64,000 nt of DNA, from positions 1,984,001 through 2,048,000 of the forward strand of contig OZ244052.1 in NCBI GenBank assembly GCA_965215125.1, read 5' to 3'. Each line of letters begins with the position of its first letter. Position 1 is the stretch's first letter. The notes under the pieces are model-generated. The model was given only the letters and a program-made list of their open reading frames with translations, searched no databases and was not told where the DNA came from. The translations under genes were made by a program, and so were the position numbers. Source of the stretch: an uncultured candidatus Porisulfidus sp. GTDB lineage: Bacteria; Pseudomonadota; Gammaproteobacteria; Poriferisulfidales; Oxydemutatoraceae. Below are positions 12,150-19,734 of the stretch, one piece after another.

Positions 12150-14078
12150 GTGAACGGGCGAATACAACAGCTCGCCGTATCGGGCATGCTTATGCTTGCG
12201 TGTCACGGTGTTTTTGCAAACCAGCTATTACAAAAGCAAAGAACCTTATATCTCAAAGCCGAACAAACGCTCAAGCAAGGACACGGTGCTTTCTTTTCAC
12301 AACAGCGTGATTTGCTAAGCGACTATCCGTTGTACCCTTATCTGTTGTATCTAGATATGGCAAGACGCATCGCATCTGTGGAAACCAAGACCATCGTCGA
12401 TTTTCTAAATTTCTATGACGGCACACCGGTTGCCGACAAATTGCGCTATAAATGGTTGAAGCATCTGGTAACTAGAAATAATTGGCAACTATTTGCACAA
12501 CACTATCGGGCCGGCCGGTATTACTCGGATAAAGAACTCGCTTGTTTTTATGCGCAGAGTCTGCTACGGAGCAATCGTTTTAATGAACTACGTGCTTTGG
12601 CAAAACAACTATGGTTAGTCAATTTCTCTCAACCTTCGGAGTGCGATGCCGTTTTTCTATGGGGCAGACAAACTCGAGCGATTGACCAAGACCTGATATG
12701 GCAAAGGATTCTATTGGTTGTCAAAGGCGGTCGTTTGAGCCTTGCCGATTATCTCGCAAAGCAATTGGATGCCGATACACGCAAATGGTATGCTCTGCTC
12801 AAACAAGCCCATTCTCATCCGTTCAAAGCATTGGCAGAAATAGAAAGCCACTCAAAACATTCTCCATTTCTGCACCAAGTGCTTTTATATAGTCTGTGGC
12901 GGACACGAAACGAAGACTTACATAGAACGCACGCTTTGTGGAAAGGCATGGAGCGGTCTTTTAGACCTTATTCCGATGTCTACGAACACGCACGCAAAGA
13001 TTTAGGTATTTCTGCGTGCTGGCAATTAGAACCCGAGATAGGGTTGTACTATCTATCGTCCCTCGATGTTGCCGCTGCCGATGAGAATTTTTATCATTGG
13101 CGCATACGGTGTGCGCTTCGTTTGCAGAAATGGAAAACGGTTTTAGAAACTATTGAAGCATTAGACGAACCGAACCGAACGAGTAGCAGATGGCTTTACT
13201 GGAAAGCACGAGCACTCGAGCGTTTGGGAAGAGACGAAGAGGCAATGGCTACATGGAGACGCGGTGCCTCCGAGGCAAGTTATTACGGCTATTTGGCCGC
13301 CGACCGTATCGGCGCACCGTATGCGTTGTCTACCGTACTTCCCGAAGTCGAGCGAGCGACCCTAAACAAAGTTAAAGACTCGGATACGATGAAGCGAGTA
13401 TACGAGTTTTATGATATGGATAGGATTTTTGATGCCCGGCGAGAAATGCTATATCTGTTGCCTACAATGAGTAAGGACGAACGTCTAGGTATTGCTTTAC
13501 TATGCAGACAGTGGGGTTGGGCTACTTGTGCGATTGAAGCACTGAGCGACCCGATGTTTTGGCATAAAGAATTAGAGCTGCGTTTTCCTATGCCGTATGG
13601 CGATCTCGTCGCTGCCCAAGCTCGTCAAGCCGATCTGCCGGCGCACTGGATTTATGCGGTAATGCGCCGCGAGAGTGCGTTCATAGAAGATATTAAATCG
13701 TCGGCAGGCGCACTGGGTTTGATGCAACTGATGCCGGCGACCGCTCGTCGCGTTGCTCAAGGTGCAAAGCTAAGTTATGCCTCTAATCGGTCGCTATTGC
13801 AACCCACGCTGAATATGCGGCTGGGGAGTACTTATCTAAGGCAAATGTACCTCGTCAACGACCGAAATTGGGCAGCGGCACTTGCCTCGTACAACGCCGG
13901 CCCTCATCGCGTTAAAAAGTGGAAATCGCAATCACCGGTATACGATGCAGATATCTGGATAGAGACGATACCGTTTGTCGAAACTCGTCGTTATGTAAGG
14001 GCTGTTTTGTTCTATACGGTTGTCTATTATTACAAGCTCCACCATAAGGCGATACGACTGAAAACTCTGGTACAGTAA
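12150..14078 (+). CDS. slt: soluble lytic murein transglycosylase (Slt70-like)
   Basis: Signal peptide, YPLYPYL, RRESAF, GALGLMQLMP, ASYNAGP, IPFVETRRYV. Confidence 0.92.
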   Translation: MNGRIQQLAVSGMLMLACHGVFANQLLQKQRTLYLKAEQTLKQGHGAFFSQQRDLLSDYPLYPYLLYLDMARRIASVETKTIVDFLNFYDGTPVADKLRYKWLKHLVTRNNWQLFAQHYRAGRYYSDKELACFYAQSLLRSNRFNELRALAKQLWLVNFSQPSECDAVFLWGRQTRAIDQDLIWQRILLVVKGGRLSLADYLAKQLDADTRKWYALLKQAHSHPFKALAEIESHSKHSPFLHQVLLYSLWRTRNEDLHRTHALWKGMERSFRPYSDVYEHARKDLGISACWQLEPEIGLYYLSSLDVAAADENFYHWRIRCALRLQKWKTVLETIEALDEPNRTSSRWLYWKARALERLGRDEEAMATWRRGASEASYYGYLAADRIGAPYALSTVLPEVERATLNKVKDSDTMKRVYEFYDMDRIFDARREMLYLLPTMSKDERLGIALLCRQWGWATCAIEALSDPMFWHKELELRFPMPYGDLVAAQARQADLPAHWIYAVMRRESAFIEDIKSSAGALGLMQLMPATARRVAQGAKLSYASNRSLLQPTLNMRLGSTYLRQMYLVNDRNWAAALASYNAGPHRVKKWKSQSPVYDADIWIETIPFVETRRYVRAVLFYTVVYYYKLHHKAIRLKTLVQ

Positions 14079-14099
14079 ATTTAGCAGATTGGATATTGG

Positions 14100-14148
14100 T
14101 CCATTCCCCTCCTATGGAGGGGTGGCAGGCTTCGCCTGACGGGGTGGT
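14100..14148. repeat. CCCCTCC-GGAGGGG hairpin plus CAGGC-GCCTG hairpin repeat
   Basis: attcccctcctatggaggggtggcaggcttcgcctgacggggtgg; related copies near 9500, 22965, 23640, 46215, 48238, 52610. Confidence 0.85.
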
Positions 14149-14260
14149 CGCAGAAGCTGGGCTGTTGAAAAAGTGCAGACATCGCACAAATCCAACCGCT
14201 TTGCGCCGTATAATTATCCAACCCACCTGTAGGGGCAGACTGATATGATGCCTTATTAAA

Positions 14261-14266
14261 AGTCAA
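14261..14266 (-). promoter_or_regulatory. -35 box (TTGACT) at the IS110 right end, half of the circle-junction promoter
   Basis: In the reconstructed circle it lies exactly 17 bp from TATATT in the left end. Confidence 0.75.
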
Positions 14267-14317
14267 GTTATTTTATTCGTTTTTTATCTTTTTCTATCTC
14301 CTCTTCTGAGTATCAAT

Positions 14318-15304
14318 TTAGGACGCAGATACGCAACAATAATTCGGGTCAAACGGTTTCTTGTGCTTGAGTATTCCGTAAATGATACGCGTCAGTTTAT
14401 GGGCGCAAGCAACAATAACCTGCTTTTTGGTTAAATCCGGACGCCGCCGGCTTAACTGGTCGGCGAACGCACGGACGATTGGGTTATGAACCCGAGCCGA
14501 GAGTGCCGCCATAAATAGTGCGGTGCGCAGGTGTGCATCGCCAATTTTAGAGATGTGCGCCTTCGCCTCGTAGTTGCCGGATTGCTTGCGCATCGGAGTG
14601 ATGCCGATATAGGCGGCAAGTTGCTTTGGGTGTTGAAACGTATTATCATCAAAAGCTGCACATAGGGTGGCTGCGGTTTGAGTTCCGATTCCAGTAATAG
14701 AGCAGAGCAATTGATACTGCTGTGTGAGTTGTTCGTCTTCAGCGATGATTTCGTAAAGTAAGGCGTCACACTCATGGATTTGTTTCTGGAGGTGAGCGAG
14801 TTCTGCAGCTGCCTTCTTTTTGAGCTGCATACTGCGCAGCGTCTTTGCACAGTTGCTTAACTGCGTATGGGACTTGGTTAATTGCCGGCGCCATTTCAGT
14901 GTATCTCTCAAGGCGAATACTGCTTCGGTAGGCTGTTCCCAGTCTTGAATATCACCGACTGCAAATGCGAAGCGTGCGATGAGTTGCGCATCAACGCCAT
15001 CGGTTTTATTACGCATACCCAGCGTTTTGCGGTAGCTCGCGACCTGTACAGGTGGCACAATCGTGATGGGATGTTGGTCATAGCTTTCCATGCACAGGTC
15101 TAGCTCAAAACCGCCGGTTGCCTCAACGCAGAGGCGACACTGTTGCGCACCATGCTCGGTAGCCCAAGATAACAGTTGTTTGATGCCTTGGGCATCACTA
15201 CTAAATTGTTGCTCGGCAAAACTATTATCAGTGAATAATAGAGCCGCCTCTAAAGTGTCTTTAGAGACATCAACGCCAATCGTGACGGGTTGTTTGTTTT
15301 CCAT
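14318..15304 (-). CDS. IS110-family DEDD recombinase/transposase (328 aa)
   Basis: GVDVSK, VEATG and KTDGVDA (D-E-D-D), SITGIG, AAYIGITP, KQSG (catalytic Ser), HISKIG, AHKL. Confidence 0.96.
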   Translation of the reverse strand: MENKQPVTIGVDVSKDTLEAALLFTDNSFAEQQFSSDAQGIKQLLSWATEHGAQQCRLCVEATGGFELDLCMESYDQHPITIVPPVQVASYRKTLGMRNKTDGVDAQLIARFAFAVGDIQDWEQPTEAVFALRDTLKWRRQLTKSHTQLSNCAKTLRSMQLKKKAAAELAHLQKQIHECDALLYEIIAEDEQLTQQYQLLCSITGIGTQTAATLCAAFDDNTFQHPKQLAAYIGITPMRKQSGNYEAKAHISKIGDAHLRTALFMAALSARVHNPIVRAFADQLSRRRPDLTKKQVIVACAHKLTRIIYGILKHKKPFDPNYCCVSAS

Positions 15305-15339
15305 AATAAATTACTCCATAAGGGTTGGTTAATGAATGA

Positions 15340-15540
15340 AATACTAGGTATCAAACACAGTTTAGGAAAGTATGACTACGCCGCCCAAACAGATGAATAC
15401 GAGATCTAAAGTCCCAAGCTGCCTTTCGAGCTCTATAGTCATAACGCCGGAGGAGTGCTTTTCATACCATCAGGCTTTAATGCCTCGTCCGTCCTGCAGC
15501 GTGTCTCCTCCGACTTCCTAGGCACTGCATCTACCTAAGC
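15340..15540 (-). ncRNA. predicted IS110 bridge RNA with target-binding and donor-binding loops; ends approximate
   Basis: Two stem-loops with internal loops, stems 15505-15514/15446-15455 and 15436-15443/15371-15378. Loop segments match the REP target and the donor junction. Confidence 0.8.
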
Positions 15541-15570
15541 GTTTATCTTATATCAAATAAGCCAGGGTTT

Positions 15571-15576
15571 AATATA
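15571..15576 (-). promoter_or_regulatory. -10 box (TATATT) at the IS110 left end
   Basis: 2 bp inside the core; pairs with TTGACT at a 17-bp spacer only after circularisation. Confidence 0.75.
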
Positions 15577-15890
15577 TCTGTCCGCCCTAAAGTTCCGTTC
15601 TGCACAGCCGTAACCGCTTGCGCCGTATGGTTTTGGTTTCCATAAATTGGATGAATGAATGTATAAATCGTGCAGGCGCAACGCGTTACGGGCAGAATAG
15701 AGCCGCCGATTGAGCCGGTAGGTCAATCGGCAATTCAATTGAAGTCCGCCCCTACGGTGTATGAAATACTTTTTCAACAGCCCCAGCGTATCTGCACAAG
15801 TATAGTGCTAGTCCTGACGAGACAAACTACCGGATTTTATGGTATGCTATAGTTTCTAGCAAGGTCTCGACGACCGAATAGGAGGGGAAA

Positions 15891-17747
15891 ATGAATGGTG
15901 ATTTACATAGTCTATCAAGAATAGTAAGTACATCAAATGGTTATCTGAGATTTAATCACAGCACCGGTAATCTGCAGACTAACGGCGGTAATTTTCTAAG
16001 CAGACTGGTAGTCTGGATACGTTTCAAAACCAGTTCGAGTTATAGAAGTTCAGTCTTAGATGCCAAGCGTCGGATTATGGAATCGATGTTATCCGATAGT
16101 GTCTACGGCGAAGACTTTCGTCAAAAAATAGAAGGCTTAGATAGAAGGCATGGATTTTTCTTCAACGATAAACCTCTGTCGGCAAGAAAAGTACGTCGCT
16201 TTATAAATGATGTAACGCAAGATGTGAATCAAGTACTTCATCGGGAAAGGTCCCAGGAGGAATTAAGCAAAGGTTTGGTTGATTGGGTATGCGGCAAAGG
16301 CAACACCATAGCGAGCGGTGAGACTTTCGAAGATAATCTACATGCGATGCTCGTCGAGAAACTGCAAGATGAACATGGTATCACAGCGGCGGATGTCGAT
16401 CTAAAGGGGATAGGTGACGAGATCCATCAAGCCTCCTTGAATGATCGAGAAGGGATGGCGACTGTCACCGACGGTGCGCAAGCTACCGTGCATGTAAGCA
16501 AGGCTATGTCTCGTATTTTGGAGGGGCGTATTGCCGATGCACGCTCGGTGAACCAAGCAAAATTATGCAGGCGGTTATCTGTTTCGGGCTTGTCCGAGAC
16601 GGAAATGGACACGGTAAATGCGGAGATTGCCGCATCTAAAATTACAACGATGGATGAATTAGACCAACATGTAAATCGCTTAATCATACTAAAAGTAGAC
16701 GAGGAATTTCCGCAATTACTTCAACGAGCACAAGCGGAACAAGATTTTAACGGCGAACTTGCGCAACTATCCGAGCTGAGGGCACAATTAAAAGAAGAGC
16801 TTACACGGCAGAGCGATCATCGGATGTTGTCGATGCAGGCTGCCCGCGACAAAGTCGGTCAATTATTAAATCGTTGGCTTGAAAACAAGCAACAAGCGAT
16901 CGCCGCAGCGCAAGAGAGTCGACACACAAGCATAGTCGATGTATTAACCAAACTTGCATTACAGGAACCTCGGGCGCGCAAAGAGCATATTCAATCTTTT
17001 AGACAAACGATAGAGCAGACCTTGGATGAGATTTACGAAAAAAACCGTTCCGATTATGAAGCACTCAATGTTGCTAAGGCAAAACTTTTCTCCATGTTAT
17101 ATAAATTTGATCGCCGAGAAGTATTATTGAAGCGTTTGCAGGATTTGGTTAAAGAGACGCAAACGGCAAGTTCTCTGTTTGAAGACGATATTCGGCAAGT
17201 TCCGGACATTAAAGGCGTGGCTAAAAGATATGTTGAATCGGTGAGTAAGCCCATGGTACGAAGCCACGCAAAGGTGTCGGCTTTAAGAGGAAGAATTCCG
17301 GATTATATTTTCCATACCATGCTGGAGAAAGTAAGCAAGGGTTATGTATGGGAACCGAGGTTTGTTTCTGCGGCAAACGGGATGCACATAGCCAACCTGA
17401 CTAAAAAGGAAAACGAAGGGCTTTATGCGTTATTGGACTCACCGCAAGTTGCGCGAAAAAGAATAGGTAGCAGGGAAGACTTCGTTAGTTTTAGCTTAGA
17501 CGATTTACTCAAATCGATGCTGGGTCCTAAAAACATAGATAATCACAAAAAAAGGAGACAAGCCATAGATCAAGTGGTGCCCGACGAAGTTAAAGTCAAA
17601 CTGTTGGATGAATTGGATCGTCAGTTGTTGATGGTACGGAGCAGGGTTATGGATGAAGAAGATGCGAATGCTTTATTTGAAAGAGGAACGGTTAGATTTT
17701 TACGCGCCCAAGACATTAATTTTGAAGCGATGACCGCAAAGGAATGA
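15891..17747 (+). CDS. hypothetical helical protein, paralog 1 of a tandem trio (candidate secreted effector)
   Basis: 618 aa, AGGAGG RBS, collinear similarity to the next two ORFs. Confidence 0.8.
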   Translation: MNGDLHSLSRIVSTSNGYLRFNHSTGNLQTNGGNFLSRLVVWIRFKTSSSYRSSVLDAKRRIMESMLSDSVYGEDFRQKIEGLDRRHGFFFNDKPLSARKVRRFINDVTQDVNQVLHRERSQEELSKGLVDWVCGKGNTIASGETFEDNLHAMLVEKLQDEHGITAADVDLKGIGDEIHQASLNDREGMATVTDGAQATVHVSKAMSRILEGRIADARSVNQAKLCRRLSVSGLSETEMDTVNAEIAASKITTMDELDQHVNRLIILKVDEEFPQLLQRAQAEQDFNGELAQLSELRAQLKEELTRQSDHRMLSMQAARDKVGQLLNRWLENKQQAIAAAQESRHTSIVDVLTKLALQEPRARKEHIQSFRQTIEQTLDEIYEKNRSDYEALNVAKAKLFSMLYKFDRREVLLKRLQDLVKETQTASSLFEDDIRQVPDIKGVAKRYVESVSKPMVRSHAKVSALRGRIPDYIFHTMLEKVSKGYVWEPRFVSAANGMHIANLTKKENEGLYALLDSPQVARKRIGSREDFVSFSLDDLLKSMLGPKNIDNHKKRRQAIDQVVPDEVKVKLLDELDRQLLMVRSRVMDEEDANALFERGTVRFLRAQDINFEAMTAKE

Positions 17748-17829: not shown

Positions 17830-19734
17830 ATGAATGTAATAAATTTACAATCTTTAGTGCAGATGATCAATCGATCACACGGTTATATCGGTTTAGACCG
17901 ATCGACGGAGGAATTGAAGACCGAGGGAACTCATTTTATAGGCAAGGTAGTCACTTGGGTGCGTTTTAGGTTTAATAAAGATTATAGAGAAGCGGCTTTG
18001 CTCGCCAGAGGCAAAGTAAAGGATTTGCTATCGAATGATCCGTTGCACGGCAAGGATTTCAAGGCAAGAATAAACGAATTAGATCCTCAAGGCAGTATTT
18101 TCTATAAAGATAAACCATTGTCGGCTAGAAAAGTGTATCGCTTTATCAGCGATGTACAGCGGAATGCAACGGAAAAAATCGACCTAGCACAAGGATGGAT
18201 AGACTGGTACAGCGGCAAAGCCGAGTCGATGTCAAGTAGAGAGCGTTTTGATAATAAGGCGGAAGCTATGCTTAGAGAAAAGATTAAAGGTCGGAGAGGT
18301 ATTTCGGTTGAGGATGTCACTTTAATATTTCTAAGCGATGAGGTCAATAGACAGGCTCGGGACGACACAGCGGGAATTAAAACGATAGTGGATCAGGCTG
18401 ATGATCAGCAGGCGCAATATGCGCAAAGGTATGTAGATCGGATACTGTCGGAGGCATTGGATCGGCGCATCGATGATGCTCGTCTAGAATTACAAAACGA
18501 ATTAAACGGATATCTTGAGGCTTCCGGTTTAGACGGTGAAATAAAGCAAGCGATAACGACGGAGATTGCCGATGCAACGATAGCGACAACCGGCGAGTTA
18601 AAGACGCGCGTCAACGAAGCCGTCGTCAAGCAGATAGGCAATGAGTTTGAAGGTTTGCTTGCGCAAGTGCGAGAAGATCACCAATTTAGCGAACGGCTCA
18701 CGCAGTTGCCGGAAGTCCAACAGCAATTACAGACGAAGCTCGCACAGCAGAATCAAGGTCGGATATTATCGGTTAAAGGAGCACGCATGCAAGCAACCCG
18801 GCTATTAAGCCAATGGGTATTAGGCAAAAAAGAAGCCATCGTGGCACTTGAACACGCTCAATACGCCGGTATGGATGATTTGTTGAAGAAATTGTTGCTA
18901 CAGAACCCTTATTTAGGGAAGCCGCAGATTGAATCTATACAACGAGACATGGAACAAACATTGGATGAGATTTATGACAAAGACGCAGAAGCCTGCCAAG
19001 CCCTAGGATTGGATAAGGGAAAAATTTTATCTAAGATGCATCAGTCTGTTCGCCGCAATATACTATTTGAACGCCTTAAAGAGCTATCTAATTGGGCACC
19101 CAAACCAGACTCTTTGTTTGACGGCAAGAATTGGGGATTAACAGGCGTTAAGACTGCGGTGCGAAATTATACCGAAGATATCGTTGCTCCCTTGCTCGAC
19201 AGTTATAAGAAAGTATCAAGCCTAAAGGGCAAGATACCGAATCGTATTTATGAAACTTTAATGCGGGAAGCCGGCAAAGGTGCCCGGTTGGAACCTGAAT
19301 TTATATCCATAGCAAATCAGATGCATATTAACACCTTGACCGATAACAATTATAGTGGGTTTTATAGATTATTACAGACACCGGAAGTTGCTAAAAAGAG
19401 GATAGGTAGTAAGGATAGTCTCGAAGATTTCACCTTAGACGATCTGCTCAAAGTAATGCTATCCGCTAAAGATATTCGTAATCCCGAGAAAAGACGGCAG
19501 GCGATAGATAGGCTAATACCCTCTATGGCGAGAGATCAATTATTGGACAAATTGGAGGCGCAGTTGGGAATGGTAAAGAGTAGGATAATGAATGAAGAGC
19601 ATGTCACCGCTTTATTTCAAAGAGGTGCAAGCAGTTTTTTACGAGACTTAAAAATTAATTTTGAACACCGAGTCGCAACCGCCCCGGCAGAATCGCCGAA
19701 GGATTCCATTGTTCGTTATGAGACACCTGTCTAG
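17830..19734 (+). CDS. hypothetical helical protein, paralog 2 (candidate secreted effector)
   Basis: 634 aa, AGGAGG RBS, shared motifs (KPLSARKV, LLQTPEVA, QAID, INFE); ends YETPV. Confidence 0.8.
   Translation: MNVINLQSLVQMINRSHGYIGLDRSTEELKTEGTHFIGKVVTWVRFRFNKDYREAALLARGKVKDLLSNDPLHGKDFKARINELDPQGSIFYKDKPLSARKVYRFISDVQRNATEKIDLAQGWIDWYSGKAESMSSRERFDNKAEAMLREKIKGRRGISVEDVTLIFLSDEVNRQARDDTAGIKTIVDQADDQQAQYAQRYVDRILSEALDRRIDDARLELQNELNGYLEASGLDGEIKQAITTEIADATIATTGELKTRVNEAVVKQIGNEFEGLLAQVREDHQFSERLTQLPEVQQQLQTKLAQQNQGRILSVKGARMQATRLLSQWVLGKKEAIVALEHAQYAGMDDLLKKLLLQNPYLGKPQIESIQRDMEQTLDEIYDKDAEACQALGLDKGKILSKMHQSVRRNILFERLKELSNWAPKPDSLFDGKNWGLTGVKTAVRNYTEDIVAPLLDSYKKVSSLKGKIPNRIYETLMREAGKGARLEPEFISIANQMHINTLTDNNYSGFYRLLQTPEVAKKRIGSKDSLEDFTLDDLLKVMLSAKDIRNPEKRRQAIDRLIPSMARDQLLDKLEAQLGMVKSRIMNEEHVTALFQRGASSFLRDLKINFEHRVATAPAESPKDSIVRYETPV

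Follow-up and report, generated by a model that had tools for sequence, protein, structure and literature searches.

Does the long non-coding end of an IS110-family insertion sequence from an uncultured candidatus Porisulfidus sp. encode a bridge RNA, and if so, what do its loops read? Bridge RNAs are recently described molecules in which two programmable RNA loops direct DNA recombination, and they are under development as genome-editing tools. The locus lies in a window of 64,000 nucleotides (contig OZ244052.1, positions 1,984,001 to 2,048,000), which is the whole stretch of DNA analyzed here and to which the coordinates below refer. A first-pass annotation had read such an RNA on the minus strand, with a target loop and a donor loop inside a long closing stem, and every string that it quoted was found on that strand exactly where it had been placed. 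Comparing the sequences of related copies, we suggest that the minus strand of 15345-15563 very probably encodes the bridge RNA of an IS110-group element at 14246-15580. We regard this RNA as a further example of the described class; the known mechanism is unchanged by it.

The boundaries of the insertion sequence (14246-15580, minus strand) follow from its copies in the same genome. All eight aligned left ends start ..ACA|GATATATT, and all nine right ends terminate in AATAAGGCATCA. At the window site, the left flank ends in GGGCGGA+CA (15587-15579) and the right end in AAGGCAT+CA (14254-14246), which is followed by TATCAGTCTGCCCC; empty paralogous repeats read ..GGGCAGACATATCAGTCTGCCCC.., i.e. 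left flank, CA and right flank joined exactly and without duplication. Based on these common ends and empty sites, the element measures 1333 bp, and each of its junctions is marked by a CA core (15580-15579 and 14247-14246). CA is the core of every copy. Both the target and the donor string named in the first-pass annotation are thus real: they are the GGGCGGA+CA flank and the AAGGCAT+CA right end, and empty sites do join at CA.

The insertion site is the loop of a GC-rich intergenic palindrome, GGGC[G/A]GAC-loop-GTC[C/T]GCCC. The left target and core (GGGCGGA+CA, 15579-15587, minus strand) belong to the left arm of this palindromic repeat and the core and right target (CA+TATCA, 14241-14247, minus strand) to its loop, so that the target of the window site, written through, is GGGCGGACATGCAAGTCCGCCCC. 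A loose pattern search gave about 48 empty palindromic sites in the genome; the palindrome is embedded in larger repeats, for which there are 81 matches. At the window site these are longer mosaic repeats (15579-15800 and 14100-14247, about 120 nt on one side and about 90 nt on the other), which recur dozens of times genome-wide and in both orientations. Contigs from three of four runs join 14245 to 15579 and so skip 1333 bases, with 2 ambiguous letters and short sides (23-30 letters); as they probably come from paralogous empty repeats, we did not count them as excision. Next to the element are two adjoining paralogous ORFs on the plus strand (15891-17747 and 17830-19734; 618 and 634 aa) for which no Pfam family was found, and upstream of this pair a soluble lytic transglycosylase with SLT and SLT_L domains (12150-14078).

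The recombinase gene (14318-15304, minus strand) encodes 328 aa with the Pfam domains DEDD_Tnp_IS110 and Transposase_20 (PF01548 and PF02371, E 5e-20 and 2e-25), and the protein matches the IS621 transposase (8wt6) with E 1e-42 across residues 8-321, at ~32% identity. The DEDD and serine residues of the window recombinase are D12, E61, D102, D105 and S242, all of them invariant in an alignment (A1) of seven subfamily representatives; S241 is named as the recombinase serine of IS621 (PMC11208160, PMC11208158). Recombinases of a 70-72% subfamily (L036, L039, L019, L023 and L027) are five codons shorter, with TGA replacing the Cys codon of the window copy; this early stop reads as a C-terminal truncation rather than an internal break. 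The non-coding ends of the element measure 274 nt on the left (15578-15305) and ~70 nt on the right (14317-14248), and ATA..TAT bracket the donor core, so that the subterminal inverted repeat is very short. By its long left end, short right end and very short subterminal repeat, the element is to be placed in the IS110 group rather than the IS1111 group.

Nine copies of the element, the window copy included, are present in the 2.22-Mb single-contig genome (11 blastn pieces of at least 150 nt): three of the others are 96-97% identical to it, one is truncated, and four are at ~82%, two of those being interrupted. The interruption in these two (L043 2127-3230, i.e. G000:C1:764.8-765.9k, and G000:C1:298.4-299.5k) lies at the identical position and is a 1.1-kb element whose protein (367 aa) has rve and HTH domains; it is thus another, nested IS. 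Relatives were found only in the window's own genus: of 53 genomes in the order, 4 have a protein match. G033, a fifth genome from this genus, contributes four diverged RNA regions only, at 71-73% identity and with different target guides (L170-L173). A contig peptide scan gave 5 loci, only 3 of them close. A metagenome scan with the protein alignment gave no relative among 155 pattern matches, and one with a 16-nt scaffold motif gave at least 120 stretches, none of them related by blastn or tblastn among the matches listed. The best plasmid match by tblastn was 33.5% identical, too distant to be usable for RNA alignment. Since all homologues are kin from one genus (5 genomes), independent changes are few.

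The guide comparison is accordingly built on 27 full copies from four genomes of this genus, with 12 distinct RNA sequences. Right-target counts cover 25 sites, and left-donor counts cover 25 copies with a readable right end. Set apart from the 27 rows are a copy with a split frame (copy D, C1:1121k; right guide 6/7 by hand), a truncated copy with a different right flank (copy E, C1:1428k) and 7 further copies in G035; the four G033 regions, two cut by contig ends and two decayed, are likewise outside the guide-target counts. Among the 12 RNAs, the scaffold has 93% mean column identity, while the recombinases are 61-72% identical to that of the window, and the differences among the RNAs cluster at guide positions. 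At the level of sequence, the scaffold is more conserved than the protein.

The predicted RNA is about 220 nt long (15345-15563, minus strand; RNAfold and RNAalifold), with ends that we infer from the promoter position and the last conserved helix. It would begin with a 5' stem-loop (15538-15563; RNAalifold columns 18-43, where pair 18-43 occurs as GU, AU and GC), and the contrast that had been drawn with a free 5' hairpin in IS621 was therefore overstated. Next is the target-binding hairpin (15446-15514), whose outer stem pairs GUCGGAGGAG (15514-15505) with CUCCUCCGGC (15455-15446) and whose internal loop is capped by an apical stem-loop in which AGGC (15485-15482) pairs with GCCU (15475-15472). 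The donor-binding hairpin (15371-15443) has a stem of UAUGACUA (15443-15436) and UAGUCAUA (15378-15371), and ends ~65 nt before the start codon of the recombinase. Two closing helices would enclose the hairpins, an inner one of UAGGAA (15515-15520) with UUCCUA (15363-15368) and an outer one of UAGGUA (15532-15537) with UACCUA (15345-15350); the 5' strand of the outer helix can alternatively form a local hairpin (15536-15532 with 15524-15520). All of these features are on the minus strand. The two-hairpin fold had been drawn by eye and is the same as the minimum free energy structure of RNAfold (-69.1 kcal/mol; the z-score is only -2.1, with 4/200 shuffles folding equally well), and the RNAalifold consensus of 12 sequences retains both hairpins with their internal loops: 5' stem-loop (columns 18-43), target hairpin (67-136), 2-nt linker, donor hairpin (139-211) and a three-part closing stem. 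Against Rfam 15, the region 13800-16000 gave a single hit at E up to 1, a weak mir-136 match (E 0.35; 15680-15761) that is due to chance and falls on a hairpin of the flanking mosaic repeat; no curated model thus independently confirms the bridge RNA reading.

Pairing in the stems was assessed on 16 sequences, namely the 12 close RNAs and the four diverged G033 RNAs (71-73% identity). For the hairpin stems, 97.3% of cells are paired, with 6 compensatory pairs (21 cells), compared to 35-48% in slid controls, and neither the pairing percentage nor the covariation score was reached in any of 500 shuffles. Within the target hairpin, pairing reaches 99.4% in helix 67-76/127-136, which has 2 of the compensatory pairs, and helix 81-83/123-125 has 2 more; the donor hairpin helices (139-147/205-213, 151-155/197-201 and 166-170/180-184) are 91-100% paired, also with 2 compensatory pairs.

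The long closing stem of the first-pass annotation fared less evenly. Its inner 6-bp helix is paired in 96.9% of cells (slid controls 15-70%), with a covariation score reached in 0/500 shuffles; two of its pairs show double changes (AU replaced by GC in 3 sequences, UA by CG in 1), and its pair probability is at least 0.94 in all 12 close sequences. The outer helix has probabilities of 0.61-0.98 in the same 12 sequences, but it is only 83.7% paired, with 130/500 shuffles as good, and is broken in the four distant G033 rows, whose 3' alignment is uncertain. Folding the IS621 left end for comparison gave a structure that lacks a closing helix and in which the donor hairpin directly adjoins the start codon. 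Given these covariation results and the IS621 fold, what survives of the proposed closing stem is the inner 6-bp helix, not the long form.

An RNA that ends sooner is an alternative. As in IS621, the molecule might stop just past the donor hairpin, at about 15371, in which case the 3' strand of the closing stem would belong to the leader of the recombinase mRNA; the working RNA would then consist of the 5' stem-loop, a second small hairpin (15536-15520) and the two guide hairpins, with no closing helix. In favor of this, the published IS621 RNA is 177 nt long and ends with the donor loop (PMC11208160, PMC11208158), and the IS621 fold and the loss of the outer helix in the four distant sequences point the same way. 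The local hairpin (AGGUA/UGCCU) is moreover 100% paired in 16/16 sequences, in a shuffle control that was itself weak (75/500), and varies in pair type at two positions (UG, CG and UA at one; AU, GU and GC at the other). Against it stand the covariation and high pair probability of the inner helix, with which the local hairpin clashes at one base only. Position 15533, the sole base separating the window RNA from four sister copies, is U in the window, favoring the outer helix, and C in the sisters, favoring the local hairpin. We consider the shorter molecule to be possible rather than probable.

With similar caution, we can only tentatively suggest that the bridge RNA of this lineage is a closed three-way junction, in which the covarying 6-bp helix joins the segments before the target hairpin and after the donor hairpin, with a 2-nt linker between the two hairpins; we hold this arrangement, too, to be possible rather than probable. 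Were the closing helix present in the active molecule, it would lock the target and donor modules into a set orientation to each other, unlike in IS621, where the linker is flexible and a single synaptic complex takes its two loops from separate RNAs. The helix may also set the 3' end of the RNA apart from the recombinase message. A literature search, covering sources that were partly available, found no IS110 bridge RNA described as a three-way junction; a similar helix may already be drawn in Fig. 6d or Extended Data 10c of PMC11208160, which present six other bridge RNAs.

What the loops read can be judged against the rule published for IS621. By that rule, 8-9 nt on the 5' side of each internal loop are complementary to the bottom strand and 4-7 nt on the 3' side to the top strand, and every one of the four pairings includes the core (PMC11208160). 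The left guides of IS621 measure 9 nt (target) and 8 nt (donor), and its right donor guide pairs discontiguously, flipping two bases out; each right guide is followed by two 'handshake' bases, and position 7 is the handshake position (PMC11208160, PMC11208158). All four guide segments had been placed correctly in the first-pass annotation, and their strand sense agrees with this rule. The left target guide GGACGGACG (15486-15494, minus strand) has the same sense as the left target GGGCGGACA (GGGCGGA-CA) and forms 7 Watson-Crick pairs and 1 G:T, with 1 mismatch at position 3. For the right target guide, the position given earlier was right, but the UAUG proposed there is only the last four bases of a 7-nt segment, UGGUAUG (15463-15469, minus strand), antisense to CA-TATCA, which pairs 7/7 with the top strand CATATCA, including one G:T; AA at 15462-15461, directly after it, occupies the place of the IS621 handshake guide. 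The left donor guide AAGGCAGC (15418-15425, minus strand) has the sense of AAGGCAT-C and matches the right end AAGGCATC at 7/8 positions. Lastly, the right donor guide AUUCAUCUG (15390-15398, minus strand) pairs through AUCUG (15394-15390) with CAGAT, and its AU can also pair with the following AT if two bases, UC, flip out as in IS621. GUAUU (15400-15396) precedes AUCUG, and its resemblance to the IS621 donor loop, named in the first-pass annotation, is correct, as the IS621 locus reads CGUAUUUGCAAG at the same place.

Taken singly and in the window only, these matches are within chance: with G:U and G:T allowed, they were equalled by 217, 84, 122 and 681 of 1000 shuffles, and the best wobble-tolerant donor-left match lies elsewhere than the proposed left donor guide. 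The ordered arrangement of all four guides, on the other hand, was reached in 1/5000 dinucleotide shuffles. The best wobble-tolerant donor match in the whole RNA is AGGCAU in the apical stem-loop (15485-15480), identical to donor positions 2-7 (AGGCAT); as G033 does not share this resemblance, it is probably a coincidence. Shifting the register of the left target guide by one base was also considered and rejected for the window; by hand reading, this is better for the G033 copies and misfits the window and the 62% family. One G033 locus (L171) has a left flank, AATGCCAGAAACA, that fits its guide AAUACCAGAUAUG in the shifted register. With single matches in the window within chance, the true support for a bridge RNA is to be sought in the comparison of homologous sequences.

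It is in the right guides that this comparison is clearest. The right target guide pairs with the right target by Watson-Crick pairs over all 7 nt at 21/25 sites, with one wobble at 3/25 and one mismatch at 1/25, so that full 7/7 pairing, wobble included, is found at 24 of the 25 sites. Its four variants UUGCAUG, UAGCAUG, UAACAUG and UGGUAUG occur with CATGCAA, CATGCTA, CATGTTA and CATGCCA/CATATCA, respectively. Likewise, the right donor guide follows the A/G change of the left end: 10 copies combine AUCUG with CAGAT, and the other 17 combine ACCUG with CAGGT (27/27, no exception). Covariation of guides with target and donor across homologues, proposed earlier as a check, is thus found in both right guides, and the reading of loop 1 as target and loop 2 as donor, with four guides converging on the CA core, is supported as far as sequence comparison reaches.

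Covariation of the left target guide appears to be partial. It contains CGGAC in hosts with the palindrome arm GGGCGGAC, and GAGGGC or GAGAGG in hosts with the arm GGGAGGGC; row by row, it pairs at 8/9 positions in 14 rows, 6/9 in 1, 6/9 in another 11 and 7/9 in 1. Guides of the window class have a constant mismatch at position 3. Left target pairing is weakest in the most numerous family, at 62% and with 17 protein matches in G035 (e.g. L021, L024 and L028, in G034 and G035): of the 9 positions of GAGAGGAUU against GGGAGGGCA, 5 form Watson-Crick pairs and 1 a wobble, positions 2, 7 and 9 are mismatched, and the core is unpaired. The handshake bases of this family, AU, match donor positions 7 and 6. 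Cognate guide sets have the best score, or one at most 0.5 from the best, for 6/6 site classes. The left donor guide cannot covary, as the right end is invariant; it pairs 8/8 in 2 copies and 7/8 in 23/25. These 23, which include the 17-copy family, have G at guide position 7 (window 15419), next to the core and opposite a donor T, and the matching U is found only in the 97% subfamily of the window's genome. As to the core, UG is the last dinucleotide of both right guides in 27/27 rows, and C is the last base of the left donor guide; at the first core position, the left target guide has C in 15/27 rows and, in 12/27, a U that wobbles with the G of the bottom strand; the core dinucleotide would accordingly belong to all four pairings.

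At one locus (L025, G034:C1:264.0-268.0k), a copy of the element is inserted in the target-hairpin stem of another copy, with a left flank ..GUCGGAGGAGACA and an intact right arm of the palindrome opposite, an apparent self-directed or off-target insertion.

The window copy has a mixed ancestry. We compared 14246-15580 with the copies at G000:C1:452k, 603k, 909k, 990k and 1121k: positions 1-400 of the window copy, which hold the RNA and 41 codons, differ from the 82% subfamily by 1 mismatch, while positions 401-1335 (935 nt) differ from the 97% subfamily by 3. Judging from these differences, the window copy arose by recombination between two IS subfamilies, with a crossover near position 400, ~124 nt into the recombinase gene; the subfamily that supplied the RNA module has a recombinase ~70% identical to that of the window. 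This origin explains the 7/8 donor match of the window, as its RNA is of the type with G at position 7, whereas the RNA of the 97% subfamily reads AAGGCAUC. It also makes the copy's own activity uncertain, and the RNA family could be real and the window copy nonetheless a dead recombinant, immobile by itself, in which the RNA of one subfamily is joined to the recombinase and right end of a second. The two-part ancestry and the position-7 mismatch between left donor guide and right end would both suit this, yet that mismatch is shared with the 17-copy family and others as noted above, the recombinase frame is intact with its catalytic residues, and the right target guide of the copy fits its own unusual site, CATATCA, 7/7 and, by hand reading, better than the guide of the other subfamily does. 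We thus think it unlikely that the copy is dead. If the three-way junction is true, a natural swap of the RNA module between recombinases ~70% identical would show that the scaffold is portable.

That the structure is merely a leader of the recombinase mRNA, e.g. for control of translation or stability, with its matches to flank and ends arising by chance or as leftovers of terminal sequence, would agree with the chance level of the single matches and the lack of an Rfam match, but is very improbable given that guide positions co-vary with sites outside the element, that the joint arrangement is so rare in shuffles, that the protein is homologous to a recombinase shown to use such an RNA, and that the scaffold is more conserved than the protein.

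For the RNA to act it would have to be transcribed, and the ends of the element suggest how. A -35-like TTGACT in the right end (14261-14266, minus strand) and a -10-like TATATT in the left end (15571-15576, minus strand), both read from the sequence, would be separated by a 17-nt spacer once the ends join at one CA; this arrangement fits the junction promoter described for IS110 elements. When the integrated context was scanned, neither a sigma-70-like site ahead of the RNA nor an intrinsic terminator behind it was found. By analogy with IS621, we suggest that the element would exit as a circle, in which joining of right and left ends would create the putative promoter and allow transcription of the left end. 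The RNA would then fold into the 5' stem-loop and two internal-loop hairpins, possibly held together by the short closing helix, and would be bound by the recombinase with its DEDD residues and serine, as its counterpart is in IS621. Loop 1 would read the host repeat, and loop 2 would likewise read the circle junction AAGGCAT-CA-GATAT, so that strand exchange could take place at the common CA.

The family is a clean natural illustration of such a system, with a near-constant scaffold serving recombinases 61-72% identical to that of the window. Its target guides are rewritten to match the differing palindromic repeats of sister species, and one copy has swapped its RNA module between subfamilies. 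Three of its features could inform design rules: the 7-nt right target guide, the CA core, and the widely kept mismatch at donor position 7 along with the possible closing helix.

Among known systems, the closest comparison is with IS621 of E. coli (Durrant et al. 2024, PMC11208160; Hiraizumi et al. 2024, PMC11208158). Both elements have the RNA in their left end, ahead of the gene for a DEDD/Ser recombinase, and in both it consists of a 5' stem-loop, a target hairpin and a donor hairpin in this order; the left target guide has 9 nt, the left donor guide 8 nt, and the core takes part in all four guides. Both have CGUAUU at the right donor guide, the window element reading CGUAUUCAUCUG where the IS621 locus reads CGUAUUUGCAAG. 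In both, the target is a palindromic intergenic repeat. A promoter is rebuilt at the circle junction of IS621, and a putative one would form at that of the window element. There are also differences. The window protein is only ~32% identical to that of IS621 and the core is CA instead of CT, the T of which is nearly invariant, and by these two features the window element falls outside IS621 and its close orthologues. Its right target guide has 7 nt compared to 4, its hairpins are separated by 2 nt compared to nucleotides 99-109, and its RNA has ~220 nt compared to 177; the 6-bp helix that would close both hairpins into a three-way junction and the ~65 nt between donor hairpin and start codon also set it apart.

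The IS1111 group shares with the window element an RNA-guided DEDD recombinase of the same family. Its RNA (seekRNA) is found in a long right end, and its subterminal inverted repeats measure 7-17 bp (PMC11208160), whereas the window element has a long left end (274 nt), a short right end (~70 nt) and only ATA/TAT flanking the donor core. Going by its description in a recent preprint, ISPpu10 of Pseudomonas putida resembles the window element in its choice of site: all of its insertions are in copies of one intergenic GC-rich stem-loop sequence (bioRxiv 10.64898/2026.03.19.712850), much as the left guide of the window RNA would read the arm of a GC-rich palindrome and the right guide its loop.
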